IMG/VR virus record: IMGVR_UViG_3300030333_008459
Span: 1 to 64,000 of that record
Source: a virus
Length of the DNA stretch: 64,000 nt
Strand: one strand, 5' to 3'
Translations under genes and position numbers: made by a program
The notes under the pieces: generated by a model
The model's database searches: none
Told to the model about the DNA's origin: nothing
What the model saw: only the letters and a program-made list of their open reading frames with translations
In this document: piece after piece, positions 47,878 through 63,451 of the stretch
Position numbering within the stretch: position 1 is the stretch's first letter
Layout of the letters: each line of letters starts with the position of its first letter

Positions 47878-48263
47878 TGCCTATTTATGTTTACAAAAAT
47901 CCTGAAACAAACGAATACCGCGAGGTATTCCAAGGGATGAATGATAAACACATTTATTCAGAGGATGGTGTTGAGTGGAAGAGGGTTTTTCTTTCACCCA
48001 ACGCTTCCATTGATAGCTCAATAGACCCGTTCAATAAACAGCAATATATGGATGCCACCCATAAGAAGAAAGGGACTATGGGTGATATGATGGACCTATC
48101 TGCTGAACTAAGCGCTAAACGGTCAGAAAAAATAGGAGGCTTAGACCCTGTAAAAGAAAAGTTTTACGATAACTATGCGAAAGAAAGAAAAGGCGCTCAA
48201 CACCCTGAAAGAATAAAAGAACGTGGTTATGAAAGCAAAAGAGTTAAGATTGATTACGACTAG
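47877..48263 (+). CDS. FmdB-like zinc-ribbon-type protein lacking Cys ligands
   Basis: MPIY.Y.N..T.E..EVFQ.M...KRVF..P pattern. Confidence 0.6.
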   Translation: MPIYVYKNPETNEYREVFQGMNDKHIYSEDGVEWKRVFLSPNASIDSSIDPFNKQQYMDATHKKKGTMGDMMDLSAELSAKRSEKIGGLDPVKEKFYDNYAKERKGAQHPERIKERGYESKRVKIDYD

Positions 48264-49429
48264 TGGAACACAGTCGAATCACAATGCCCACTAATTTTTA
48301 AACCTTCTGTTTCTGTAACCGCGAAAGAAAATTCAGCGTCAAATTGCATTTGCCCGTTTATCGCCATTCCATAATTGTAAGAATTTAATTTTGCGTTTTC
48401 TATCTTATAAAGAGCTTGATTTTGAACAGGATCGACATCAGCAGCCAAACGCAATTCAAAACTATAATCTTCGTCACTGTCCAAGACTCCTGTTAAGATA
48501 CCCGCATCTAATCCTGACACAAGAGAGGAAACTGAAAATTTGCCATTAGCGGGGAATTGTGCTTTTCTATTGTAAGCAAAATCATTTCCTAATCCGTAAG
48601 AAGAGACCCTCGGCAAATCAACCGACAGATCTAAAGATTGAATAAAATGTGTCCCAGATAAGTTTTGCCCCCCTACCTGCATATTTTGTAATGTTATATC
48701 ACTATTGCTATTAACTGGATTTAATATAGGGGGTCTTGTTTGAGATATAGTATAACCAACATTTGGAGAAAACGTAAAGGAAGTTGAGGCTGCATTATCG
48801 TTGTTTCCACTTTCTAAATTAATAGCTGGGGAATTCATTGTTTCTCCAGTTATGTTTTCGAAAACAACGTTAGAGCAGATATAGTTTGTAGAAACAATAG
48901 GTAATCCCCCCACTGCATAACTAAGTCCGTATGTTGTAGGGAAACAGTTCCCAAAAGCCATTGCATCAAAACCTGATAAATTTATAGTCTCATCGTCAAA
49001 TGTTATATCATAATCTTTTAAAGCGTTAGTCCCCTGTCTCGGAGCCATAAAAACATAAAAATTTGTAGATTTCCCGACCACACCAGAAAACATATTATGT
49101 AGTCCAGTTAAATAATGCCCCTTCCCAGCGGCGGTGGGTGTTTCCATTAAAAACCCCCCATTACACTCATTAGTCATCCACGGCTGGCCGAAAAAAGAAA
49201 TTGTTAATTCTACGTTAGGCTGTTGCACAATACCATTAAAAGAAAAATCTTGACTACCTACTTGTTTCAAATTTTGGCGAGGTAATTGTATAGAATAGTT
49301 GACTTCTTGAACCCCACCATAAAGACATAACTGTCGTTTAGCAAAAGGACTTCCTCCCGCAACAAAAGCCTCATCTGTGTTTTGGGTTGCTACAAAAGCA
49401 ATATTGCTTTTTATAATATCTCTAGCCAT
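48260..49429 (-). CDS. Tail-tube-like protein (paralogue of 62306..63451); probable tube-baseplate junction
   Basis: Shared blocks VQ..NYS....RQ...Q.G, GN.....Y.....VG.LP and IQS.......R.....LG..FA..R...FP. Confidence 0.65.
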   Translation of the reverse strand: MARDIIKSNIAFVATQNTDEAFVAGGSPFAKRQLCLYGGVQEVNYSIQLPRQNLKQVGSQDFSFNGIVQQPNVELTISFFGQPWMTNECNGGFLMETPTAAGKGHYLTGLHNMFSGVVGKSTNFYVFMAPRQGTNALKDYDITFDDETINLSGFDAMAFGNCFPTTYGLSYAVGGLPIVSTNYICSNVVFENITGETMNSPAINLESGNNDNAASTSFTFSPNVGYTISQTRPPILNPVNSNSDITLQNMQVGGQNLSGTHFIQSLDLSVDLPRVSSYGLGNDFAYNRKAQFPANGKFSVSSLVSGLDAGILTGVLDSDEDYSFELRLAADVDPVQNQALYKIENAKLNSYNYGMAINGQMQFDAEFSFAVTETEGLKISGHCDSTVFH

Positions 49430-49430
49430 T

Positions 49431-50381
49431 TTATGTTCCTGTTGGTATTACCCCGAGTGGATCTTCTATTAATTCAACTGTTAAATCATTAGAGTTGTAA
49501 GAAACCCAAGTGTGACTCCACTGAGGACAATAATAAACTTTAGGTCTATCATATAACGAGGGAATTTGATGCTCAAATCTTCTGTATCCACCTTTTCTTT
49601 CTAAAAAATGAAGCATACACTTTAACTGATCATCAGTTATATTTTTATAAGTATAGCTCATGTTAAATGTAGCTATATTATTATTTGTTTTTAATCTCTC
49701 TTTAAAAGAGTTATTGAAGTTTATAATATCAGCCTTAATAGTTACATCGTTTTGAGTTCCGATATCTGGTTCGAAGAAAAACTTTTGAGACCAAATTGAA
49801 TCTGAACCTGTAGGGCTATTTGTTTCAGTAGAAGTGTGGTCTCCACTACAATAGTAAAAATTATCTAATTTGTTTCCATTAATTCCAGTATAAACCACAT
49901 CATATTTTAAATAGTTAACGCCTTGGCCCCAGTCTTGGAAAGGCAAGTTAGAGAAAGATCCTCCTGACCAATTTAACAAAGTAGGAGCACGATTTATACT
50001 AACGCTAGCAGCAACCTCAAAATGCTGATTGTTAATAAAATTAACAGCATAATTATTACAAACTCCTGAAACAGTATGATATACTCTAGTGTCAGGTATA
50101 AACTCAAACTGGTTGTCTCCTGACTGATTTTCAAAAAACGCCACTAGTTTTTGAGCATTTGTTTCATTGACATCATATCTAACATTAAACTCTGCTGTCA
50201 AACTGTTGAGAGACATGGGAATTAAATTATAATAAAAATCATCAGTAACATAACTGTGATTATCAGCTGCAAAGCTTACCTGAGATCCGTAAACAGGACT
50301 TAACGAAAGATCAGCCAGCTCGCTTGGAACTGTGACCCCCGAGACATTAATGTCTCTATTATAGAATAAGCTTTCTCCCAT
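49431..50381 (-). CDS. Minor/distal tail protein (two lambda gpM/Dit-like domains with a CBM-like insertion)
   Basis: Two copies of 'F...Y.....  ..L..F.E...G...F.F' separated by W...NY.KYDVVY...YYC...P....W. Confidence 0.6.
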   Translation of the reverse strand: MGESLFYNRDINVSGVTVPSELADLSLSPVYGSQVSFAADNHSYVTDDFYYNLIPMSLNSLTAEFNVRYDVNETNAQKLVAFFENQSGDNQFEFIPDTRVYHTVSGVCNNYAVNFINNQHFEVAASVSINRAPTLLNWSGGSFSNLPFQDWGQGVNYLKYDVVYTGINGNKLDNFYYCSGDHTSTETNSPTGSDSIWSQKFFFEPDIGTQNDVTIKADIINFNNSFKERLKTNNNIATFNMSYTYKNITDDQLKCMLHFLERKGGYRRFEHQIPSLYDRPKVYYCPQWSHTWVSYNSNDLTVELIEDPLGVIPTGT

Positions 50382-51190
50382 TATTGATTTCCTATATAGT
50401 TAAGGTTTAGCCTTAGAGAACCATCAGCAGAAGATGAAAGCTCCTCACTAACTAGCACCGCAGACGGCAAACGATATGTCTGAATGGTTGACCCATCTCT
50501 TCCTTTGACTGTTAAAACAACAACATCTGAATTTCCAAACTTTCCCCCTCTTCCATCTTTACCCGAAGTTAAAAAATTATATCCACTTTCAGGCATAGCG
50601 TCATCAACATCTAGCTGTATCGAAGCGGTGTAAGCAGTAGGGTGTATAGCCTTGACTTCTGATGGAGACTGACTACCTATCGTGTAATATGGCTTAATAG
50701 TATAAGTCTTTGAATAATCAAAACCTAAAACTCTGTTTGTAGTAGAGTTGTTACAAGTAGCGGTAATTGAACCCTGAGTCGGGATATCTATATTGCTAGT
50801 GGTTGTTCCTGATGCGTTAGCTCCACTTCTTAATTCATCATAAATAACAAAATTATAATTAACCCGAGGGATTGCGCCGACAGCTACGTTAACTGAATAA
50901 TTAGTTAAATAACCATTAGTAAAACCATAAGATGAATTATTATAATTTAAACTACCACTTGCCCTTTGTCCTATAGTTAAATCTTCTATAGTTGTATCAG
51001 AGATAAGATATCTAGAAACAGAAAGGCTTTGTTCAGTCGGACCTCCAACCGTTGTCACTCCTCCTAAATATCCCAAAGGCTTGCTGAGATTAGCGGAGTT
51101 TCTATAGCCTATATCTACAGAATTAACGCCTGATATCTCTTCTCCATCTACAAAAAAGTGGGAGTCGTAATTTAACCTTGTTCCAAACAT
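50381..51190 (-). CDS. Tail-tube-like protein (third paralogue)
   Basis: NGYLTNYSVNVAVGAIP matches GNAYLTDYSVDLSVGSLP of the major tube protein; lies immediately downstream of the TMP. Confidence 0.6.
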   Translation of the reverse strand: MFGTRLNYDSHFFVDGEEISGVNSVDIGYRNSANLSKPLGYLGGVTTVGGPTEQSLSVSRYLISDTTIEDLTIGQRASGSLNYNNSSYGFTNGYLTNYSVNVAVGAIPRVNYNFVIYDELRSGANASGTTTSNIDIPTQGSITATCNNSTTNRVLGFDYSKTYTIKPYYTIGSQSPSEVKAIHPTAYTASIQLDVDDAMPESGYNFLTSGKDGRGGKFGNSDVVVLTVKGRDGSTIQTYRLPSAVLVSEELSSSADGSLRLNLNYIGNQ

Positions 51191-51196
51191 TTTTTA

Positions 51197-54100
51197 TTAC
51201 CTTCTTAATGATCCACCTAATCTTTTCTCCTCTTCTATTGTTTGTCTCACAACATCTCTAATTCTTAAAGCTAAAGTTTGCTGCTCCTCATCGCCGCCGC
51301 CTTCAGTTGTCTGTGTCCCGTCAGAATTAACAGTAATATTAATTACAGTTTCTCCACCTTCTCCAGAAACATTTATAAGTTGATCCAATCTTGAAACTAT
51401 CGCCTCAGTTCCACCTTCTAAACTACCCCCTCCATTTAAATTAGAAAGGTTTCCACGCCCGATGCGCTGGGTGGCGGCAGCATTCATAACAAATTCTCCA
51501 CCCGACAACATGCTGGGGACCGTATCTACTCCAGCAGTGGGAGAGATATATCCACCAGTAGCATGTTTATCTAGGTTTATACCAGCTGCTGAGTTAGATC
51601 TTAACCAAGCTTGCAGTTCAGCTTCGGTTTGTGGTGTTACGACATTTCTCGGGGTTCCCAATGGCGGCAGAACACCTGCGGCTCCAGCTGTCGCAGTATC
51701 CGCAAAGGATGATGGCCCAGGTCTAAATCTAAATCTACTTGGTCTCACTCCACCTGTAAATCCAGTGCCTACCGTATTTCCAACCCTAGCGGCTGCTTGA
51801 TTGATTTCTTGTATATTTTCGGAAGTTACATTGTCTAAGTTTTCTATGGCAGAAGCTTGCCCCATGTTAAAAAAGTTGCCTATCGCTCTTCCTGCTCTAG
51901 CGAAAAAACCTCCCCCCTCTCCAGACGAGTTACTAAGAACACCGCTTGCTCCTCCACCCAACATAATCCCAGCCCCGCTATCAGAAGAAAGTCCAGCTGA
52001 TTCAACTCCACCAGATTCTCCTCCTCCTTGATTAACAAGACCACTAACCCCAGCCGCTACTACAGCGCTAATAACGGAACCTAATAAAGCTCTTCTTTGT
52101 TGCTCTCGTTGTTCTCTTAATTGTTCTTCAAGCTGTGATTGTCTCGCAAATAAACCAAATGCCTCTCTTTGGGATTCTTGTTCTCTTTGAAACAGAGGGC
52201 TATTCCTTCTTCCAAACATCGTGAGACGAGCGCTCATAGGTTCTAAAGAAGCAAAGCCTAATCCTTCGCCACCCCCAACTCTATCAAACTGTCCGCTAGT
52301 CGAAGATTGGGTGGCAAAACGAAGCAGATCTCTACTCCCTGTTATTGATCCTTGACCGAAAGTTCCTGGGCTGTAGAAACCTCCCGCTTGCATCTGAGGA
52401 ACATTGCCTTCATTTAAATCTTCTAAAAATGCTCTTCCATATCTATTCACGGAAGCTCTTCTGATAACAAACTCGCCACCAGTTAATAACGTAGGAACAT
52501 CATCCCTAGTTCCTGAACCGCCCGTGATTATACCGCCTCTGTTTTTCTTTTCTCCTCCAAACAAAAAACTTAAAAGATTAAAACCACCGCCGCCGCCCTT
52601 TCCTAGACCTACCCCTGTGATCTGGTCAACAGCGCTCTGCATAAAGCCTTTAGCTAATAAACTAAAGAAATCTGTGGCAGCGGCTCTAAGGGCATCTCCT
52701 AAACTTTCACCCCTAGCTATCGCATCTACAAGGGCATCGGACATGGTGTTTTTAAAATTTATGGCCGCATTCTCTATTGTAGTAGCAAGAGTATCTGCAT
52801 TGTTTATAGCATCAAACTCTGGCCTCTCTCTTAGTCTCTGTAAAACACTACGCCTCTTGTCGCTTGCGTCTTGGATTATACTTGGCTCTACATCAGCAGG
52901 GCCACCCGCAACAGCGGCAGCTCTTCGCGCTGCGGCTAAACCCGCTCCTCCAAAACCAACTTTCTCTAATTGTCTAGAAGACTCTTGTAAATCATTAGCT
53001 GTTTTTATTCTTATTCCTATCAGCTCAAGTTCAGCCTTAGATTGAGCAAGAGTAGCCTCTGTGGACTGCCTAGATAATTCTGTTTCTTGCTTTAATGCTT
53101 CAAGGCGCTTCTTGATTTGAACTGTTTCTGTATCTGTAAGATTCTTAAGAGAGTCTTCAATTATTTTAAAAGCTTCTTCTGTCGTTTTAGCTTCGGCTAT
53201 TCTTTTCTTTAAATCTAACCTTGCCCCCTTTTGAATATCAGCAATATCTTCTTCCTTGAAGCCAGCTGTCCGTAATTCCTGTCCGCGAAGTTGCTGCCCC
53301 CTAGTATTAAAAGTCGGACCCAAGTCAAAACTTCTAGCCCTTTCTAACAATCTGGCTTCTCTTTCTCCTGCCCGTGATGTTTCTATACCAAAATTAAGCC
53401 CACGAATCTGCCTTTGTAAGCCTTCTCTTTGTTCGGGATTCAGCCCCCCTTGATCCAAAGTTCTTTGCGCGTCTCTTTTTAATCTTTCTAGGTCAGCTAT
53501 GTCTTCATTTGATTGGAATACTTGATCAAAGGCATCTTTACCAATTTGAAGGTCTAAAAGAGTTCTGGCTGTATCTAAGTTATCTCTTATTCTGTCGGTA
53601 TTATCAGCGGCTTTTTTTGTTGCTAATTCGAATGCGTTTGCAGCCTCAACAGATCCATCACCCGCCTCGACAATTTTGACCATGTTTTTAGCTATCTCTT
53701 CAGCGTTAATATTCCTTTTGTTATCAAATCCTAAAACTTTTTGAATAACCGCAGCTATTGCATTAGCATCTGTCAATTGTTTTACGGTCAATTTAGAAAG
53801 TTCATCTTGAAGATCTAGCCTTTGTTGTTCATTAGCGCTTAAACCTTCTACTGAATCTATCGCCTGTTTTACTAATTCGAATCTTCTTTTTAACAATTTA
53901 TTGTTAAGTTCAAATTCTAATTTTTGAGTGCGGAGATTTCTGAGTTCGTCTTTATTTAAAGTGCCTAAGCTTTCCGCTAATTTAATTCTTCTATCAAAAT
54001 CTTTTGTGGTAGTAAGCTCTACTTGGCGTTTATCTAAAGCTCCCTTTAATAGTTCTTTGGTTAATTTTAATTCTTCTCTTCTACCCTCATCGGCAGTAGC

Positions 54101-57100
54101 GGCTATTTCTTGTTCTATCCTTTTTATCTCTTCTTTGATTATTTTTTCTTTTTCCGAAAGGGTCAAACTCTCACCAACGTTAGCAAATTCTGGACCTGCC
54201 ACTCTTCTTATATTCTTTAAAGCTTCTTCGGGTAAAAAACTACCCGACCCCGCTTGTAAATTTTTTAGAAAATTATCCAAGCTCCCTGCCCCGAAACCAC
54301 TTTTTCTAAGCAAGTTCCGAAAATCGTTTTCCTCTTTCTCAAAAGCTTTTCGACCTTCCTCAATGACGGGAATTAATCTTCTAATAGCTTCGTCAAATTC
54401 ACCCCTAGTTAAGACGGCTCCTTCAAACTCTCTTCCAGTTTCTGGGTCTCTAAACTTACCAAAAGTCCCTCCTCCTGGGCCTCTGGCTTCTTCTCTCAAA
54501 ACCTCTCTAACAAGCGCGGGATCTACATTAGCAAGACGGGCTTGTTGAAAAAGATTCTCGATATTCTTTCTAAATTCCTCGTCTTTTTTACCTAATGGGG
54601 TGTTTGCTATACCCACATCTCCAGTCATCCGTGCCTTTATCAATGCTTGAAATTGATCATTGAACTCAGCATTCGACAAAGCTTGGGCTGCTTGGAACTG
54701 ACGATCATCTAACCCAAATTCTCTAAAATCTCTCGATGCCTGTGACTTTAGTTGTCCTTGTTCTAAATTAGATAAATTATTCAGCTGTCTCGTAGCTCCT
54801 TTAGCGGCATCAGCTAATCTATTCATGTTTCTTGTGTTGAGTTCGTTAATGCCTCTTGACTCCATCAAAGCTTTATCAAGTCCGTTATAAACAGCTACTG
54901 TTGCCCCTATTGCTGCGCCAGCAATACTCAAACCACCCAAAAACTTTCCAAATCCAGCAGTGATTGTCTTGCTCGATGCCGCCATATCATTTGCAAAACC
55001 CTTTATTGCAGTCCCCGCAAAAGCTATAGTCGTTAGTGTGGTAACCATTTTGGTTAGTTCGTTCGTAACTTTTCCCATTTTGGTTTCAGCACCTGAAGTA
55101 GCTCCTTGTAATGCAGCCATCGCTGCTGTCACAGCGAAGATCGGGCCTAGTAGATCTCTCTGACCTCCTGGGGGTGTTGGCGCAGTTCCTCTGTTTAGAG
55201 AAGGAGCAGGGTTGCCGCCTCTTTGCCCAGGAACATTCACCGCAAGGTCTCTCCCTGTTGGAAACTGGTAATTTGGTATATACCCTCCAGCAAAAGGAAT
55301 AGCCCCAGTAGGCTCATCCCTTGTATTTGTCACAGCAAGACCCATTGGGTTGTCTTGATTTCTAAGTCGGGGGTCTTGATTTACTCTAATTTGGTTAATT
55401 GGTAAGCCAGCGGCACTTTCTCTTTGTATTGCGTCTTGCAGCGCTCCTCCACCATTAGCAAAGTTCGGTATGTAACCAGAAGCATTTCTTCTGAACGCGG
55501 CACCCGCTCCCCTTGGGTATACTAACGAACTCCCGCTTCCTACGCTGGGATTTAATTGTCTGACAAGAGATTGTTGCGCTGTGTTTAAGCTCGAAAATTG
55601 TGTGTTTGCTGATCGTCCTGTAGCTCTAGCCCCTTCTGCTCCTATTCGCTTACTGCCAAATCCTTTGCCGCCAAAACGCGCTTGCCCTTGTCCTCTAACG
55701 GCAAATATTTTTTGTGCGGTGCTTATAATATGTTTTAGATCATCATTTACTTTAGCTTCTCCTCCAAGCGACCCCACGTTCTCTCCTCTTATTCCAAACA
55801 AAGATCTTATATCAGCGTTAACTGGTGTATCAAGTCTGGTGTTGCCAGCAAATCCAGCCGCATCCTTAAATTCTTGACCCGATAAAAAAGCCTTAATCAT
55901 TGACTCAAACATCAAGCCCGAAACCCCACTAGTGTCTCCAGGTTTTATAAAGTTTTGTAAGAATTCCTTTTTACCACTTTCATTAAGAATCTTTTTAGAA
56001 TTAGGAAGTCTTTTGAAAAACTGAACAGAAAATCTACCAGATGTTTTTGCTAAACGTTCTGATATTGTTTTGGTGTCAAAAGGGGGTCTTCCTTTTTCAT
56101 TTGGCGCTATACCATAAGATGGGACTTTAATTTTAAAAGTCGGGCTAGCTTTATCATTTAGAATATTTTTTGGTATACTAGCCTCTTGAGATACAAATCT
56201 TTGAACGCCTTTTGTATCTGTGTATGAAAATACTTGGTTCGCTGGCTTGTCTCCCTTTCTAGCACCTATCAATAAAACAATACCATTGTCAGTATTCATT
56301 CCTCTCGGTTTCGCGAAATTAGGAATAAACCCTGTAGATGCCCCGATTTTCTTAGCTCCAGCAGGAAGACCCATCGAAGCAACCATGTCTTGGTTAAATA
56401 TAGCCGATCCGCTTTTTCCTGCAAAGTTTGGAACAATAAACTCGCTAGTATTAGCTACGACTGGTCCTCTCTGACCTCCTCCGAAATTAAAGTTGGGTAT
56501 AGTTACTGGGCGAGCAGAGGGAGGCGCTCCCCCTACTCCGCGAGCTATATCTTGTTGTTCTGATCCATAGCCTCTAACAGCATTAAAATTAGGAATATAT
56601 CCTCCAGCCGCTCTTCCTGCTCTAGCGCCAGCAGTCCCCCTAAGCACGGCAGGAGCTATTCGACCCGCAATACCTTGCATCTGAGTCATTATTCGCAACT
56701 GCTCGTTTAAAGCGGTTGTAAAGAATTTGATTTGAGCCGCTCGTTTTTGCTCGGTGCTTAGAGTGCTATTTTCAATGCTTAAAATTTGCTGCTGGATTCC
56801 CTTGTTACCCAAAAGCGTTGACGCTATTTGTCCTTGAAGTGTCGCTTGTTGTTGCGCGGCTTTATTCAGACCAAAGAAAGTTTTTAAAGACCCTACCCCA
56901 AACCTTACCAAATCAACGGTAAGTTTAGCAACAATAGCCCCAAATATAGCCAACCCAGGTCCAGCTAGAACTCCACCTATTCCTTTAACTATGCCTTTAG
57001 CAAAATCAGAACCAATACCTTCTCCTCCTAAAATTTCTTTGACATTGTTTACTAAACTATTAAAAAATCCTAACACATTTTGCAAGCTCTCGGTTATTCC

Positions 57101-58240
57101 TATCTTGCCAAGAGTGTCAGCTAATTCTTTAAGATTTATAGTTGCCTCATTGATAGCTGTTGAAAGAGTTTTATTTAAAGCAACGTTCCGTTGATAAGCC
57201 TCGTTTGTTGCTTTTGCGGCAACGTCAGTAATTTCTATAGCAGTTGATGTTTTTGAATTATAGTCATCAAGGATAGCCAAGAATGGAGCGATTTGGAATT
57301 TACCAACCAAGTTTTCAGCTATCTGAAGCTTTTGAGCGTCAGGGAGTTTTTGGATGGTGTCGGCTAAGTTTTGAATAAGTTTAGTTCCACTTAAAACTGC
57401 ACCTGAAGCGTCCTCGACTTGCACCCCTAATTGTTGCATGGTCTTAAGCTTGTCAAGACTCTGTATCCGAGTAAAAATTGTTTTAAAAGAGTTACCAATA
57501 ACAGCACCACCCCTCGCGGTTTTTTCTTGGACCGCCGAAATAACACCCACTAATTCATCTAGACTTACTCCAGCCTGAATTGCAACCGCACCTGATCGCT
57601 TGATACCTTCAATCAAATCTCTTTCTGATACAGCTGCTTTAATAGAAGCAGCAGAAAGCTTGTTCAAAACCTCGCTGCTCGTTACACCATCTTTATTAAA
57701 AGAGTTAATAGCGGCAGTTAGTCCTGCCACAGCCTCGGTCGCACCTAACCCAGACAAACGACTTAAAACCAAAGCATCATTCAATCTAGCTATAACCTGC
57801 TCTGTCTTTAAACCTTGACGGCTTAATTCCAATGCTGCACCCGCAACTGTATCAAACGATTGTTCTGTATTTCGAGCTACATCAAAAATTGTTCTCTTAA
57901 ATGCTTCTAGTTGGGTAGTTGTTTGTCCTAAGATAGTATTGATGCTAGCCATTTGTTTTTCAACCTGAATGGTAGTGCTAACCAACTCTTTAAATCCTTG
58001 AGTGACTGCGTTAAGAACCCCAACAGAAGCGCCGAAAGCTAACACCCTTGCGTTAGCCGCTTCCATCGACTTCGTAAACTGGTCTGCCTTACCAGTAATG
58101 CGCCCCAAAGGTTGAGATAAACCTTCAATACTTTTGGCGCTAGTGCCTAAATTTATCTTAAGATTTTTACCAGCTTTCTTCGCTTGAGCCTCAATGCTAG
58201 CTTGTAATCCTGTAACTGTTGCTGGTATTCTTAATGGCAT
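51197..58240 (-). CDS. Tail tape measure protein (TP901-like N-terminal core)
   Basis: 2347 aa; A.ELSRQG, E.TARGGAVIGNSFKTIFTRI core; long helical region; two GG....D.VP..L.GGEFV motifs; C-terminal I..E.R.GG.L. Confidence 0.92.
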   Translation of the reverse strand: MPLRIPATVTGLQASIEAQAKKAGKNLKINLGTSAKSIEGLSQPLGRITGKADQFTKSMEAANARVLAFGASVGVLNAVTQGFKELVSTTIQVEKQMASINTILGQTTTQLEAFKRTIFDVARNTEQSFDTVAGAALELSRQGLKTEQVIARLNDALVLSRLSGLGATEAVAGLTAAINSFNKDGVTSSEVLNKLSAASIKAAVSERDLIEGIKRSGAVAIQAGVSLDELVGVISAVQEKTARGGAVIGNSFKTIFTRIQSLDKLKTMQQLGVQVEDASGAVLSGTKLIQNLADTIQKLPDAQKLQIAENLVGKFQIAPFLAILDDYNSKTSTAIEITDVAAKATNEAYQRNVALNKTLSTAINEATINLKELADTLGKIGITESLQNVLGFFNSLVNNVKEILGGEGIGSDFAKGIVKGIGGVLAGPGLAIFGAIVAKLTVDLVRFGVGSLKTFFGLNKAAQQQATLQGQIASTLLGNKGIQQQILSIENSTLSTEQKRAAQIKFFTTALNEQLRIMTQMQGIAGRIAPAVLRGTAGARAGRAAGGYIPNFNAVRGYGSEQQDIARGVGGAPPSARPVTIPNFNFGGGQRGPVVANTSEFIVPNFAGKSGSAIFNQDMVASMGLPAGAKKIGASTGFIPNFAKPRGMNTDNGIVLLIGARKGDKPANQVFSYTDTKGVQRFVSQEASIPKNILNDKASPTFKIKVPSYGIAPNEKGRPPFDTKTISERLAKTSGRFSVQFFKRLPNSKKILNESGKKEFLQNFIKPGDTSGVSGLMFESMIKAFLSGQEFKDAAGFAGNTRLDTPVNADIRSLFGIRGENVGSLGGEAKVNDDLKHIISTAQKIFAVRGQGQARFGGKGFGSKRIGAEGARATGRSANTQFSSLNTAQQSLVRQLNPSVGSGSSLVYPRGAGAAFRRNASGYIPNFANGGGALQDAIQRESAAGLPINQIRVNQDPRLRNQDNPMGLAVTNTRDEPTGAIPFAGGYIPNYQFPTGRDLAVNVPGQRGGNPAPSLNRGTAPTPPGGQRDLLGPIFAVTAAMAALQGATSGAETKMGKVTNELTKMVTTLTTIAFAGTAIKGFANDMAASSKTITAGFGKFLGGLSIAGAAIGATVAVYNGLDKALMESRGINELNTRNMNRLADAAKGATRQLNNLSNLEQGQLKSQASRDFREFGLDDRQFQAAQALSNAEFNDQFQALIKARMTGDVGIANTPLGKKDEEFRKNIENLFQQARLANVDPALVREVLREEARGPGGGTFGKFRDPETGREFEGAVLTRGEFDEAIRRLIPVIEEGRKAFEKEENDFRNLLRKSGFGAGSLDNFLKNLQAGSGSFLPEEALKNIRRVAGPEFANVGESLTLSEKEKIIKEEIKRIEQEIAATADEGRREELKLTKELLKGALDKRQVELTTTKDFDRRIKLAESLGTLNKDELRNLRTQKLEFELNNKLLKRRFELVKQAIDSVEGLSANEQQRLDLQDELSKLTVKQLTDANAIAAVIQKVLGFDNKRNINAEEIAKNMVKIVEAGDGSVEAANAFELATKKAADNTDRIRDNLDTARTLLDLQIGKDAFDQVFQSNEDIADLERLKRDAQRTLDQGGLNPEQREGLQRQIRGLNFGIETSRAGEREARLLERARSFDLGPTFNTRGQQLRGQELRTAGFKEEDIADIQKGARLDLKKRIAEAKTTEEAFKIIEDSLKNLTDTETVQIKKRLEALKQETELSRQSTEATLAQSKAELELIGIRIKTANDLQESSRQLEKVGFGGAGLAAARRAAAVAGGPADVEPSIIQDASDKRRSVLQRLRERPEFDAINNADTLATTIENAAINFKNTMSDALVDAIARGESLGDALRAAATDFFSLLAKGFMQSAVDQITGVGLGKGGGGGFNLLSFLFGGEKKNRGGIITGGSGTRDDVPTLLTGGEFVIRRASVNRYGRAFLEDLNEGNVPQMQAGGFYSPGTFGQGSITGSRDLLRFATQSSTSGQFDRVGGGEGLGFASLEPMSARLTMFGRRNSPLFQREQESQREAFGLFARQSQLEEQLREQREQQRRALLGSVISAVVAAGVSGLVNQGGGESGGVESAGLSSDSGAGIMLGGGASGVLSNSSGEGGGFFARAGRAIGNFFNMGQASAIENLDNVTSENIQEINQAAARVGNTVGTGFTGGVRPSRFRFRPGPSSFADTATAGAAGVLPPLGTPRNVVTPQTEAELQAWLRSNSAAGINLDKHATGGYISPTAGVDTVPSMLSGGEFVMNAAATQRIGRGNLSNLNGGGSLEGGTEAIVSRLDQLINVSGEGGETVINITVNSDGTQTTEGGGDEEQQTLALRIRDVVRQTIEEEKRLGGSLRR

Positions 58241-58261: not shown

Positions 58262-58279
58262 TTACACAAAGATTTACAC
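58262..58279 (-). promoter_or_regulatory. Tandem TGTGTAAAT motifs upstream of the TMP gene
   Basis: Two GTGTAA copies at 58262-58267 and 58274-58279. Confidence 0.55.
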
Positions 58280-59257
58280 ATCATGCCCAGCTAATCGCAT
58301 CATTTGTTCCATATTAAGCTGCCCCCCATGTTTTTCTGCTTCTTCAGATAAAGCTTTATTGCCTTGAGCAGCATCAAACGTTTTCATATCAGATTTTGTA
58401 GCCCCAAAAACAAAAGAAGAATCAGCGTCATCTTTTATTCCTGTTTTTCTTTTATCCTTATTTCTTTGAGCGTCAGAAAAAGCCAAAAGTTTTTCAGGAT
58501 CTTGTTTTATATTGTCAGGGATATCATCTGTGTTTTGGAAAATATTAAAAAACATTCTCCCATACAAAGCCACACGCAATTGATAAACACTTAAAGCTGT
58601 AACTGGTTTACGGTAAAAACCATAAACATCCTCACAAAGAGACAGATACATAGAAAAAAAAGGACGCAACACAGCTTCTTGTATTTTAAGATCAGTAAAC
58701 CTTTCTCCTATATCTGCTTGAGCCATATTAATCTTAATGACTTCCCAGCTCTCCAACCTCCCGAACTCCTCCTCTGTATATAAGTGTTCTGTTAAATCAG
58801 GATCTTTAAATAATAAAAATCTTAAAATTTCATCACTGCTTCTAGTCGTCGCATATTCTTCAGCAGTTTTCCCTATAACCTCCTGTCTTTTTGTTAGCAA
58901 CTCTGCTAGTTCTTTTTGTTTTTCCTTTATAGTATTATGCATCTCCTCTCTTTGAGATGGCAGAGGTAAAAGGTTTTGGGTATTTTTTAGATTTTTTATT
59001 TCAAATTCTTTAGAGGCTATTTCGCTATCTTCCTCATGAGACCAAATTTCCTCCTCTATAACATATTTAAGCCTGTCTTTTTCGGATTCTAAACCTCTAG
59101 ACAAAGCTAAGTTTTTATATTTTTCATAATACTTATGTAAATATCTTTGGTCTTTCAAGCTAATATGCTTAAAATAAGCTTCCTTGCCTTCTATTTGAGC
59201 TTCTGTGTATCCATCAAAAGCTTCCCCGACTAAGGAGATGTATAGTTCGTCATTCAA
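58274..59257 (-). CDS. Putative tail assembly chaperone (downstream, gpT-position gene)
   Basis: Directly precedes the TMP; TTG start overlaps the upstream stop; coiled-coil insert. Confidence 0.55.
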   Translation of the reverse strand: MNDELYISLVGEAFDGYTEAQIEGKEAYFKHISLKDQRYLHKYYEKYKNLALSRGLESEKDRLKYVIEEEIWSHEEDSEIASKEFEIKNLKNTQNLLPLPSQREEMHNTIKEKQKELAELLTKRQEVIGKTAEEYATTRSSDEILRFLLFKDPDLTEHLYTEEEFGRLESWEVIKINMAQADIGERFTDLKIQEAVLRPFFSMYLSLCEDVYGFYRKPVTALSVYQLRVALYGRMFFNIFQNTDDIPDNIKQDPEKLLAFSDAQRNKDKRKTGIKDDADSSFVFGATKSDMKTFDAAQGNKALSEEAEKHGGQLNMEQMMRLAGHDV

Positions 59258-60009
59258 AGATCGCCTTTTTCCACTTGCTCGATAAGATTATTGAACTCAT
59301 CAGGGGTGGAGGCTTGATTGAAGAACCAAAACGCTAGAATGGTGGTGACCTTTTTTACCACAGCAAGATAAAAATCATCTGACACATCTTCTTTTAAATA
59401 GTAATCTTCTATCTTTTGTTCAAAATCTTCCCCCTCAAAATAAGAAACAGGTTGCTCATCATCTTCTCTTTGAACATGAGTTAGCATTAAGGTATACCAC
59501 AACAAAAGACGGTTTTGGGCTTTTACGTCAGCAGTATGATCAAAAAGAGACTGCATAGAAGACTCGGCATCTACGATCTTTCTACGGGCAACTGAAAGCT
59601 CATTCTTAAGTTCTTCTAAACGTTCTTTTTGTTTATCGCTCTTTTTTTCTATAGTTTCCAATCGAGCATACTCATTCTGAATGTCAAAAATTTCTTTATA
59701 CAACTTACCATAATCTTTTGCATCATCTTCTGACCATACGCCCCCTGTATCGCTGTATTTTTTGTAGAGCATTGCTTTAGTTAGAATACCACGTTTCACA
59801 CAACGGCTCATTTCGACAGAATATTCCAATTCTGCATCTTCTAACTCGCGACGAGAAGGTCTCTTTAACCTGACCTGAACAGGGACTTTCTCTGTTACTT
59901 TCTTTGTAACAGTAGTTTCCTCTCCTGTTTTTTTATTTTTTCGAGTGTGCGTCTTCTCTACTTCTTTTTCTTCATCCAAAGTGAACGAATATAATTCTTT
60001 AAATTCCAT
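59254..60009 (-). CDS. Putative tail assembly chaperone (upstream, gpG-position gene)
   Basis: Acidic, helical, 'V.LKRPSR.E' pattern; second gene before the TMP. Confidence 0.55.
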   Translation of the reverse strand: MEFKELYSFTLDEEKEVEKTHTRKNKKTGEETTVTKKVTEKVPVQVRLKRPSRRELEDAELEYSVEMSRCVKRGILTKAMLYKKYSDTGGVWSEDDAKDYGKLYKEIFDIQNEYARLETIEKKSDKQKERLEELKNELSVARRKIVDAESSMQSLFDHTADVKAQNRLLLWYTLMLTHVQREDDEQPVSYFEGEDFEQKIEDYYLKEDVSDDFYLAVVKKVTTILAFWFFNQASTPDEFNNLIEQVEKGDL

Positions 60010-60020
60010 AACCTTATTCC

Positions 60021-60308
60021 TTATTTAAAAACGAAACTTATACTGTAATTATTTAAGTTAGAATCAAAATTTCTAATTGATTCGTTACCAATATCTAAAA
60101 TTCTTTTTCTGATCCAGTTAACTTTTTGAGGCGTAAAGTGATTAGCTGTATTAATGATTGCATGATATTTTTCAGGGATGTTTTGATAAAGTTTTTCATA
60201 ATGAAAATCATGATCCATTTTCATATCCTCAACCATCACTAGCATCGTCTTAAAAAGCCTTGAAATTTCACTATTAGACGATTTACTTAAATTTTTTTTA
60301 GCGTCCAT
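60021..60308 (-). CDS. Hypothetical protein
   Basis: 95-aa ORF with RKRILD.GN motif. Confidence 0.7.
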   Translation of the reverse strand: MDAKKNLSKSSNSEISRLFKTMLVMVEDMKMDHDFHYEKLYQNIPEKYHAIINTANHFTPQKVNWIRKRILDIGNESIRNFDSNLNNYSISFVFK

Positions 60309-60324
60309 GCCTTAAACCTATCTT

Positions 60325-60352
60325 ATTATATAATTTAAAGTGTAAAAATCAA
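60325..60352 (-). promoter_or_regulatory. Sigma70-type promoter overlapping a divergent GTGTAA motif (60340-60345, + strand)
   Basis: Minus strand TTGATT-16 bp-TATAAT; plus strand GTGTAA 8 nt before the ATG at 60354. Confidence 0.6.
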
Positions 60353-60353
60353 T

Positions 60354-60821
60354 ATGGCAGGGTTTTTAAGCACAGATCAAATAAACAAAGTCAGAGACCT
60401 TATGGGGACTTTGCATACGACATTTGCCAGAACTATAACAGTTTATAAGACCGCAAAAAAAACATTGATAGCTTCCACTACTTCGTGGAACTCTCTTTAT
60501 GGTAGGACTAATACAGGCTCAAATGATTCTGTTGAATACACAATAGTTTCAGAAACTTTTCAAGCTAGAATCTACTACGACGATATGGATACAGCCTATC
60601 TCACAGATGATGGGCCGTCCGAACAAGCAGGAACACAAAATAAAGTTGTTGTTTCTGATGGCACAGTAAGAATAGTGGTAGAAGAAGATGCCTATGACTA
60701 TCTTAGCGAATCTCGCAGGGTAGAATTTGACGGAACAAAATTTATTATAGAAAGTGATGGACAGCCCCGAGGTTTCACATCAAACCAATTTTATACTTTC
60801 ATCCTTACTCCTACTGAATAA
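60354..60821 (+). CDS. Putative head-closure / head-tail joining protein
   Basis: Beta-rich 155 aa (..TF.R.ITVYK...FQARI.Y...RVEFDG.KF.I); first gene of the neck-to-tube series. Confidence 0.45.
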   Translation: MAGFLSTDQINKVRDLMGTLHTTFARTITVYKTAKKTLIASTTSWNSLYGRTNTGSNDSVEYTIVSETFQARIYYDDMDTAYLTDDGPSEQAGTQNKVVVSDGTVRIVVEEDAYDYLSESRRVEFDGTKFIIESDGQPRGFTSNQFYTFILTPTE

Positions 60822-61408
60822 TGGCATCTTTAGAACCAGATGTGATTGCAGCTCTGAGCCGCCAAGTTCCTAAATTAACACGAAATAATTTAGAAAAAGA
60901 GACGCGCAGAAAATTTAAAGAGCTTAAAGGTCAAATGATAAGCGAGTTTCTCGCTCTACCTGTCACTCAGGAAATAATGGCTGGGCCAAACGGAGTAAAT
61001 ATTAGTGGCAGTTTAGGAGGCGTAAGTAATCTTTTTGCGTTCATAGGTTTTAATCAGGGAGATGATCCTATTGCCCCCATTTTAACTTTATTAGAAGCGG
61101 TTAACCTTCAATACGATTCAGATATAAAAAGATCTACTAGAGGGTTTGGTGTTAATTTTAAGGTAAATTTACCTCTACCTGAAGAAATTTTTGCAATTAC
61201 ACCTTTACCTTGGGCTACAGGTAGAAGCTGGGCCGAAGGAATTGAACGGGGTCTATCTGGTCTGGGTCACTTATTAAAGAAAAGCAAGGGTAGATCAGGC
61301 GCGGCTATCCAAACCCGTGTAAAAGTAAGAGGCGGTAAATTTCAAAATACCCCTTATATTTCAGCCTTTCTTAAAAAATATAAACAAAAGTTTGAACAAT
61401 TGAAATGA
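60821..61408 (+). CDS. Putative neck / tail-completion protein
   Basis: Position between the head-closure-like and terminator-like genes; basic C-terminus ending 'PYI...L'. Confidence 0.4.
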   Translation: MASLEPDVIAALSRQVPKLTRNNLEKETRRKFKELKGQMISEFLALPVTQEIMAGPNGVNISGSLGGVSNLFAFIGFNQGDDPIAPILTLLEAVNLQYDSDIKRSTRGFGVNFKVNLPLPEEIFAITPLPWATGRSWAEGIERGLSGLGHLLKKSKGRSGAAIQTRVKVRGGKFQNTPYISAFLKKYKQKFEQLK

Positions 61409-62253
61409 AGGAGCAATTCCAACACAAATTAACCACATCTTTTTTTCTGTGGTTTGATAATTTTCTACTTAAAAAGGGAGAAGCTTTTAGTAATAAAACA
61501 GGAACTTTTTTTAATTATTCAGACACATTGCTTGATTCTGATTATACCCCTTATGGTAGTCCTTATAAGCAATGGGTCACTGATTCATCTATTTCAGGAG
61601 CCACCATTCCTACGGGAGTTTTCATTGATGGCAGCTTTTCAGGCAGAAACAACGGTGTTGTTTTGGACTTTTCTAATGGTAGAGCTTTGGTTTCAGGATC
61701 TGTAACAGACTCTACAATAACAGGAGAATTTGCAGTTAAAGACTTCAGTGTTTATTTAACCAACGATACAGAAGACGATTTAATTGTTGAAAATAAATAT
61801 GTTGTTAATTCTCGTCTTCCCTCAGGACCAGACACCTATATCGCTCCTTATGACGATGTGGTCCCCGCCGTATTTCTATCTACGTCAGTAAGCGAAAACA
61901 AGCCCTTTGCTTTCGGAGGTATGGAAAACACAAATATTCACGCTAACGCCGTAGTCTTAGCAGAAGACACTTATCAGTTAGATGGTGTTTTGTCTATTTT
62001 TATGGATTCTGTAAACGAATCTTTTACCCCAATTCCAATGAGCGGTTACCCTATAACTGAGTTAGGAGATCTGAAAGGGGATACTTATAGTTATACAGAT
62101 GCCATAAGTCCTTATAGCGATGAAGAAAAATTTATTGTAAACAAAGTCAGAGTATCAAAACTAACCGACCGAACAAGAAAAAACTTAGCGAATGAGCTTT
62201 ATATAGGGTTTATTGATTTTGATTTAATAAAAAACAGGATGCGCTTTGAGTAG
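61405..62253 (+). CDS. Putative tail terminator / structural protein
   Basis: Immediately upstream of the tube gene; PAVFL.....N.PFAFGG motif. Confidence 0.45.
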   Translation: MKEQFQHKLTTSFFLWFDNFLLKKGEAFSNKTGTFFNYSDTLLDSDYTPYGSPYKQWVTDSSISGATIPTGVFIDGSFSGRNNGVVLDFSNGRALVSGSVTDSTITGEFAVKDFSVYLTNDTEDDLIVENKYVVNSRLPSGPDTYIAPYDDVVPAVFLSTSVSENKPFAFGGMENTNIHANAVVLAEDTYQLDGVLSIFMDSVNESFTPIPMSGYPITELGDLKGDTYSYTDAISPYSDEEKFIVNKVRVSKLTDRTRKNLANELYIGFIDFDLIKNRMRFE

Positions 62254-62305
62254 TAATTTCACATTTTAATAATAAAACTGTAAACAAAGGAAAGAATCTT
62301 TTATC

Positions 62306-63451
62306 ATGGCCAGCAGAAATAGAGTAATTTACCAATCAGAAGGGCTTTTTGTGAGCAGGGACGCTAGCTTAACGGGTGAAGCCGATAATGAGCAGCTCCA
62401 ACGAGTTCAAAGCGCTAACTACAGCTATACAATTAACCGTCAAGACGTTAACCAATACGGCGAGCTTGCTCGTATTGACTCTTTAGTTCTTGAGCCGCCG
62501 ACAGTTAGTGTTGACTTTTCTTATTATTTAACGGACGGCTTTAATGAAAGATGTTTAGATTTTTATGTTCAGACGGGTAACGCCATCAAAACCCAACTCA
62601 CAGCTCCAGGCAACTTTGCGTCTGGTCACCTTACTGCTGGATCGGGAAAAAATATTTATATTGTCACTTCTCCTGAGGGAGAAGACTTCAACGCAGGAGA
62701 TGCTTATGAGGCTAGTGATAAAATTATCGGTATTGGTAATGCTTACTTAACTGATTATTCTGTTGATCTTTCTGTGGGTTCTCTCCCCACCGCTAGTGTT
62801 AGCATGGAGGGAGCCAACGTTCGTAGTTCCGCTGGAACCGCAATCAAAAACCCAGCTGTAAACCAAGCAGATGGATCAGAGTTCACCTCCAATAACGTCA
62901 CCCTTCCTGTAGGTAAAACAGGAGGTGCGGGAGCTGCGAGTGGTGGCATTACTGCACTAAAGCCAGGAGATATCACATTATCTCTGACAGCTTTTGATGG
63001 CGAAACTGTCTCAGATCTTAGTGCTACCGAAGGTATTCACATACAAAGCGCTACTATTTCCATTCCTCTTTCGAGAACTCCTCTGGACCGTCTCGGAAGC
63101 ACCTTTGCTTTCGCACGGACTGTTGATTTCCCAGTCGTTACGACTCTTAGTGTTAGCGCGATTATGAATGAAACAGATGCTGATAACTTAGCTGATAATC
63201 TGGAGCTACCAGAACGAGATGTTTCTATCACCCTGAAAGATGCTAATGAAAACACTGCTCTGTTATGGGATTTTAAAGGAGCACTGGTCGAAAGCGAAAG
63301 CTGGAGTTCTAGTATTGGGGCAAACAAGTCTGTAGACATTACATTCACTGCTCAAATTGGTGGTCCCGAAGATGTCGCTGATGGAGTCTTCTTAAGCGGT
63401 ATTAATGGTGACCCCGCTTTTAATCTGTATCAAGCTGGACCTGCATCATAA
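62306..63451 (+). CDS. Major tail tube protein (tandem two-domain type)
   Basis: Beta-rich, with internal duplication RVQSANYSYTINRQDVNQYG / HIQSATISIPLSRTPLDRLG; follows the neck genes. Confidence 0.7.
   Translation: MASRNRVIYQSEGLFVSRDASLTGEADNEQLQRVQSANYSYTINRQDVNQYGELARIDSLVLEPPTVSVDFSYYLTDGFNERCLDFYVQTGNAIKTQLTAPGNFASGHLTAGSGKNIYIVTSPEGEDFNAGDAYEASDKIIGIGNAYLTDYSVDLSVGSLPTASVSMEGANVRSSAGTAIKNPAVNQADGSEFTSNNVTLPVGKTGGAGAASGGITALKPGDITLSLTAFDGETVSDLSATEGIHIQSATISIPLSRTPLDRLGSTFAFARTVDFPVVTTLSVSAIMNETDADNLADNLELPERDVSITLKDANENTALLWDFKGALVESESWSSSIGANKSVDITFTAQIGGPEDVADGVFLSGINGDPAFNLYQAGPAS

Follow-up and report, generated by a model that had tools for sequence, protein, structure and literature searches.

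Within a 64,000-nucleotide stretch of viral DNA (IMG/VR record IMGVR_UViG_3300030333_008459, positions 1 to 64,000; hereafter the window), we analyzed a gene for a tape measure protein (TMP) of 2347 amino acids (aa) and found that a segment of ~280 aa in its interior, the slot, is fenced on both sides by copies of a short peptide, IPNF. Comparison of near-identical TMPs shows that the contents of this slot are exchanged by recombination, with breakpoints at the flanking peptides. We read this as a peptide-punctuated TMP region carrying a swappable, basic domain of catalytic-looking or ligand-binding character, which would act at genome entry and whose alleles would be shuffled under pressure from the host; to this reading as a whole we assign a probability of roughly 60%.

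The product of the gene is a TMP, since its open reading frame (ORF) scored 97.9 bits against PF10145, well above the gathering cut-off of 33.2 (Table 1), since 14 PHROG tape-measure families matched its N-terminus or its C-terminal islands, and since the gene downstream encodes a minor tail protein (phrog_14). Its great length and its place in a tail gene module also fit a TMP, a kind of protein with hydrophobic and coiled-coil segments.

The translation contains six copies of [IV]PN[FY], at aa 549, 581, 603, 639, 924 and 988 (window positions 56585-56596, 56489-56500, 56423-56434, 56315-56326, 55460-55471 and 55268-55279), against a chance expectation of 0.024 from the composition of the protein. 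From the first to the sixth, the contexts are AAGGYIPNF, VTIPNF, FIVPNF, STGFIPNF, ASGYIPNF and AGGYIPNY; an initial annotation, made from the DNA letters alone, had listed repeated G(Y/F)IPN(F/Y) motifs with partial IPNF and VPNF copies, and the contexts read as it had written them. The form G-aromatic-[IV]PN[FY] is confined to the TMP within the whole 78.5-kb genome, and among relatives the full consensus is AAGG[YF][IV]PNFA, in which P and N reach 100%. The motif uses codons as the gene background does, which indicates that the motif is selected as a peptide; since its synonymous codons vary as they do in the background, a DNA-level recombination site was ruled out. In an AlphaFold2 (AF2) model of aa 531-1010, a region of 480 aa, all six motifs lie in stretches with a predicted local distance difference test (pLDDT) score below 50, and are thus predicted to sit in linker-like stretches. 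The fragments inspected included none in which the gene is naturally split at a motif.

We compared the TMP of this window (P0001) with two close relatives (P0004 and P0008). The proteins were 99-100% identical over aa 1-600, 921-980 and ~1320-2347, and only 10-40% identical between GFIPNF (motif 4, aa 637-642) and GYIPNF (motif 5, aa 922-927), with identity collapsing right after motif 4 and returning to 90-100% at motif 5. Slot domains are only ~27% identical between TMPs that otherwise share 99% identity. Across 41 full-length proteins, the identity of the backbone did not track that of the domain (Spearman -0.04, as against 0.60 between N-terminus and C-terminus), and the same slot allele was found on different backbones; of 257 pairs whose 400-aa upstream flanks were at least 95% identical, 40 had an unrelated slot or a slot less than 50% identical.

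The breakpoints were equally sharp in the DNA, where similarity of 90-99% ended 0-6 codons past motif 4 in 11 of 11 independent locus pairs, and returned 2-5 codons ahead of the motif that opens conserved block 2 (the equivalent of motif 5) in 10 of 11. Single slots were furthermore swapped for three-slot arrays between the same anchors. These results place a conserved junction peptide at the recombination boundary of a variable module. The initial annotation had proposed a modular, possibly polymorphic cassette with the repeats as swap sites; exchange at motifs 4 and 5 within near-identical backbones bears out that part, and the slot does vary among relatives (18% mean identity, with divergent slots in near-identical backbones), but in near relatives the exchanged segments carry the same domain family rather than different kinds of domain.

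An iterated hidden Markov model (HMM) search recovered this slot-domain family in 287 of the 331 TMPs gathered via the cassette and in 51 of 54 long TMPs gathered only via the N-terminus, and 24 of the 44 TMPs without an HMM match keep the residue pattern G.hFE…hDh…[DE]hK…K in a slot. Because of this recurrence, the slot of near relatives does not hold different kinds of cargo but alleles of one domain family. Nor did we find what polymorphic toxins display, namely variable modules from many unrelated families that also occur in other carriers. Grouped at ≥40% identity, the unique slots make up ~37 classes. Among near-full-length TMPs (n = 312), a single long slot is present in 268 and two to seven in 44; a few TMPs carry the residue pattern twice, and a 4418-aa relative carries 12 motifs. 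Pfam searches of six multi-slot relatives, aimed at known cargo in the extra slots, gave only PF10145 and sub-threshold noise. Individual distant relatives (L065, L070, L074, L077, L078, P0192, P0218, P0231 and P0170) have 2-7 long motif-delimited slots, some of which hold a second E/D/ExK core and others of which have no Pfam match.

These counts also bear on whether the motifs and the residue pattern could have arisen by chance or from the low complexity of a glycine-rich TMP segment, with no specific role. Taken alone, motifs of four residues and an E…D…ExK order are of low information content, and a regular expression for the residue pattern matched 18 times in 331 shuffled TMPs. In the real proteins, however, 268 of 285 pattern matches lie inside the slot domain, the number of motif copies far exceeds the 0.024 expected, and both the motif positions and the 10-residue consensus recur in hundreds of diverged TMPs. 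A chance origin is refuted by this conservation, and we regard it as negligibly probable.

Region-by-region identities were determined for 40 full-length relatives. Mean identity was ~75% over aa 1-645, including block 1 with motifs 1-4, 18% over the slot domain (aa 646-856), 9% over the linker that follows it, 68% over block 2 (aa 920-995, motifs 5-6), 13-17% over the coiled-coil part, and 49-57% over two C-terminal islands named here for their GEFV sequence. The slot as a uniquely hypervariable segment was rejected, the coiled-coil part being equally divergent. Block 2 contains a small core predicted with pLDDT 80-89 (P0002 residues 401-450; AF2). With hhalign, blocks 1 and 2 proved to have nothing but the 14-column motif in common, and on this basis we rejected the possibility that either block repeats the other or the GEFV islands.

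Table 1 Features of the tape measure protein gene (all on the minus strand; window positions).
Feature	Protein position (aa)	Window position	Strand	Basis
TMP gene, 2347 aa		51197-58240	-	Pfam, PHROG, downstream minor-tail-protein gene
PF10145 (TP901-type TMP core)	121-313	57302-57880	-	Pfam match
Conserved block 1, motifs 1-4	545-645	56306-56608	-	Mean identity ~75%; low pLDDT, linker-like (AF2)
Motif 1, AAGGYIPNF	544-552	56585-56611	-	Motif count, relatives
Motif 2, IPNF	581-584	56489-56500	-	Motif count, relatives
Motif 3, VPNF	603-606	56423-56434	-	Motif count, relatives
Motif 4, GFIPNF, upstream cassette boundary	637-642	56315-56332	-	Identity collapse, DNA breakpoints
Slot domain as modeled, N-terminal beta part and helical core	640-856	55673-56323	-	AF2; isoelectric point 10.0
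Slot-domain conserved core	768-849	55694-55939	-	Invariant residues over 258 unique sequences
Core residues G775, F778	775, 778		-	Conservation
Core residue E779	779	55904-55906	-	Conservation
Core residue D804	804	55829-55831	-	Conservation
Core residues E828-x-K830	828-830	55751-55759	-	Conservation
Core residue K844	844	55709-55711	-	Conservation
Variable, very basic linker within exchanged segment	857-919	55484-55672	-	Mean identity 9%; isoelectric point 12, net charge +8, pLDDT <50
Conserved block 2, motifs 5-6 and small alpha+beta core	920-995	55256-55483	-	Mean identity 68%; AF2
Motif 5, GYIPNF, downstream cassette boundary	922-927	55460-55477	-	Identity return, DNA breakpoints
Motif 6, GYIPNY	986-991	55268-55285	-	Motif count, relatives

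We examined the slot domain in detail. Folded alone (AF2, 53-sequence alignment A2), it gave a model with pLDDT 88.0 and a predicted template modeling score (pTM) of 0.81, consisting of six N-terminal strands and then several helices, so that the earlier description of this segment as non-helical does not simply apply. The string G.MFE...TRLD...GEAK to which the initial annotation had drawn attention is present as GLMFES…TRLD…GGEAKV between motifs 4 and 5, and the conserved residue order in the domain is G-x-h-F-E … h-D-h … [DE]-h-K … K. Over 258 unique sequences, conservation reached 98% at G775, 89% at F778, 91% at E779, 94% at D804, 95% at [DE]828 (every non-gap row) and 95% at K830, with 84% K and 11% Q at position 844. 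The model places E779 on helix 128-145, D804 at beta-bridge 166, E828-x-K830 on strand 187-191 (model numbering for these three elements), and K844 on the last helix; the residues of the PD-(D/E)XK type, E … (P)D … (D/E)-x-K, are accordingly found in order on helix, strand and strand. The domain is strongly basic (isoelectric point 10.0; median 9.75 over 245 alleles).

Searches with the domain returned no nuclease. Pfam on all 53 members gave no nuclease family and no other family, a PDB profile search gave no nuclease and no other relative, and Foldseek against PDB with the slot-domain model found no PD-(D/E)XK or other match at E ≤ 0.001. The best VIA-align result against 48,161 chains (Z 5.3, root-mean-square deviation 3.7 Å, 59 residues) covered a helical hairpin only and included no PD-(D/E)XK member; a second-look search of PDB structures reached Z 3.1 at best, BFVD (Foldseek) gave no match, and ESM Atlas gave no usable match. 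Alignment with hhalign to Escherichia coli Mrr and McrC yielded probabilities of 0.2% and 0.1%, so that neither Pfam, PDB profiles nor hhalign revealed profile similarity to a curated PD-(D/E)XK family. Fold searches with the model of the whole 480-aa region retrieved helical-hairpin matches only, and Pfam, PHROGs and PDB sequence searches of that region found no match. Because a profile search of proteins of 98-578 aa for free-standing homologues gave only two small TARA metagenomic fragments, the slot domain appears to be confined to TMPs. The restriction-endonuclease fold initially suggested is therefore not supported so far: the residue order is real and nearly invariant, but a confident model and the profiles match no nuclease. 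We read the domain as TMP-specific, with an unmatched fold and an active-site-like residue set; a rewired or permuted restriction-endonuclease-like core is no more than a possibility.

One account would nevertheless make the slot domain a divergent, possibly rewired PD-(D/E)XK nuclease, freed by cleavage at IPNF and delivered as an effector into the host. The order, spacing and secondary-structure context of its residues fit the family, with E on a helix, h-D-h on a strand or bridge, and [DE]-h-K on a strand followed by the K/Q helix; the basic character of domain and linker is also shared, the motifs lie in linker-like stretches, and TMPs are ejected and often processed (PMC1796659). Against these likenesses stand the missing sequence-profile and structural matches described above (Foldseek on PDB and BFVD, VIA-align and the second look; Pfam, PDB profiles and hhalign), and a predicted topology that lacks both the canonical strand between the E-helix and D and the D/ExK hairpin, with helices in place of the beta-hairpin between D and [DE]xK. 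We consider this account unlikely.

In the reading that we prefer, the invariant acidic and basic residues would make up a site for catalysis or for binding a metal or ligand. A TMP exits the tail before the DNA does, and for this reason the slot domain probably works while the genome is entering, at the host envelope or immediately inside it, with DNA or some other anionic molecule as its substrate. Variable host factors, or defenses that engage the TMP, probably exert the pressure behind the shuffling of alleles. The IPNF peptide probably serves as a junction signal, independent of which module its copies enclose; it could mark a site of processing, or it could be an epitope on which a conserved partner from the phage or the host docks. 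There is precedent both for domains embedded in TMPs and for TMP processing, even with loss of internal segments (PMC1796659), and SNIPE is a host defense directed at the TMP (bioRxiv 10.1101/2025.11.03.685801). A more elaborate form, in which the TMP would be a polyprotein carrier, IPNF its processing signal, and the module a DNA-acting enzyme of new or rewired restriction-endonuclease-like fold, released beside the end of the incoming genome at DNA entry and traded as alleles against defenses or entry factors, strikes us as quite improbable.

Several points weigh against the preferred reading. The fold rests on one AF2 model from 53 sequences, and invariant charged residues can be structural. 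In divergence the slot domain does not exceed the coiled-coil of its own protein (18% vs 13-17% mean identity), which means that mosaicism spans much of the TMP gene and not the slot alone. Furthermore, the motifs lie where conserved DNA ends and homologous recombination can begin, and breakpoints at the motifs could simply reflect this position.

The slot domain might also be no enzyme at all, but a host-variable binding module that contacts an envelope or inner-membrane factor or evades a TMP-sensing defense, with the IPNF copies as docking epitopes for the tail tube lumen, the tail assembly chaperone or a conserved host periplasmic protein. Recurrent exchange among the ~37 allele classes would suit such a module, as would the extreme conservation of the peptide beside variable modules and its glycine-rich, low-confidence context in the AF2 model; colicin translocation epitopes, by analogy, lie in glycine-rich disordered regions. 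In lambda and HK97, the TMP requires proteins of the host inner membrane or periplasm. SNIPE (bioRxiv 10.1101/2025.11.03.685801) exemplifies host systems that engage the TMP at the membrane. Five near-invariant charged or polar residues across alleles less than 20% identical, however, look more like an active site, and we give a purely binding role low odds.

A second replaced segment was observed outside the slot, at 54311-54973 on the minus strand (aa ~1090-1310), where P0001 and P0004/P0008 are 10-40% identical between flanks of 95-100% identity; its borders carry no IPNF motif. Across the family, the identity of the coiled-coil part tracks that of the backbone poorly (Spearman 0.30). At the other extreme, aa 1-645 are unusually conserved for a TMP (~75%, compared with 13-17% for the coiled-coil), a degree of conservation that suggests a conserved partner for the N-terminal 645 aa.

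TMPs are usually regarded as passive rulers and channel formers, and other TMPs with embedded domains include T5 pb2 and the staphylococcal and enterococcal TMPs with lysin domains. Like the muralytic Mt3 motif of mycobacteriophage TM4 gp17 (PMC1796659), the slot domain is a non-ruler element inside a TMP that is expected to act at genome entry. Those embedded domains belong to known peptidoglycan-hydrolase families, whereas the slot domain matches no family or fold, is basic, lies between copies of a conserved peptide and is swapped as a cassette. Set against the nearest known systems, this case stands out for the unmatched domain, its two-sided fencing by a repeated peptide, and the carrier protein.

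Polymorphic toxins have conserved pre-toxin junction motifs, VENN in CdiA and PxxxxDPxGL in Rhs proteins, and share with the TMP a short conserved peptide at the exact recombination point of a variable module. The TMP module differs in being internal and fenced on both sides, with alleles of one family rather than unrelated toxin folds; its carrier is a virion protein, and a virulent phage would not be expected to have an immunity gene. Phage tail-fiber and receptor-binding genes are also mosaic, with diverged segments shuffled between conserved anchors, presumably driven by host variation, but here the exchange takes place in the TMP interior and involves a catalytic-looking domain. A very widespread marine lineage (more than 800 clusters at 50% identity) keeps a catalytic-looking basic domain of unmatched fold in its TMP, and exchange of that domain at a near-invariant 10-residue peptide points to a genome-entry function under diversifying pressure. 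The exchange pattern also points to a conserved role for the IPNF peptide itself, and the peptide-fenced slot could offer a natural position at which to insert modules into a TMP.

We investigated the distribution of the region. A word-indexed search found more than 840 TMP-length relatives, nearly all from marine metagenomes, and an exhaustive HMMER search found 805 cluster-50 representatives carrying the motif architecture. All of the best 120 homologues (120/120) had the same layout, with motifs near aa 548, 580, 602 and 638, a slot of ~208-319 aa after the fourth motif, and then two motifs 54 or 62 aa apart. The region was absent from cultured phages (tblastn and megablast, 50,697 phage records); with a distant relative as query, cultured phages matched only the N-terminal TMP core (aa 20-450, ~26% identity). 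The TMP belongs to a large, uncultured, mostly marine phage family.

A single-sequence query against species-representative prokaryote genomes gave no match. With the alignment as query, eight short contigs of metagenome-assembled genomes (L162-L169) were the only prokaryote-genome contigs with the cassette; five of the eight bins are Flavobacteriaceae, Flavobacterium or Flavobacteriales, and no prophage context was seen. The source name of the relative P0047 adds to this weak hint that the hosts of the family are Flavobacteriia.

The two C-terminal GEFV islands are at 52361-52549 and 51425-51568 on the minus strand (aa ~1898-1960 and ~2225-2272) and share the pattern GG.I…D.VP..L.GGEFV…A….G…L..LN.G. 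Alignment with hhalign identifies one as a repeat of the other (probability 98.6%), and their matches include TMP PHROGs and PHROGs without a known function. Their opening, A.GGYI.P, resembles the IPNF punctuation, a similarity that is not significant (probability 4.9%).

Two antisense ORFs within the TMP gene, 55581-55877 (+, 98 aa) and 56220-56474 (+, 84 aa), are probably mechanical and without support. Nine of the ten ORFs adjoining the TMP gene (48260-51190 and 58274-63451) had no PHROG match at E ≤ 0.001, the tail module being very remote from described phages; the one exception, 49431-50381, matched a minor tail protein family.

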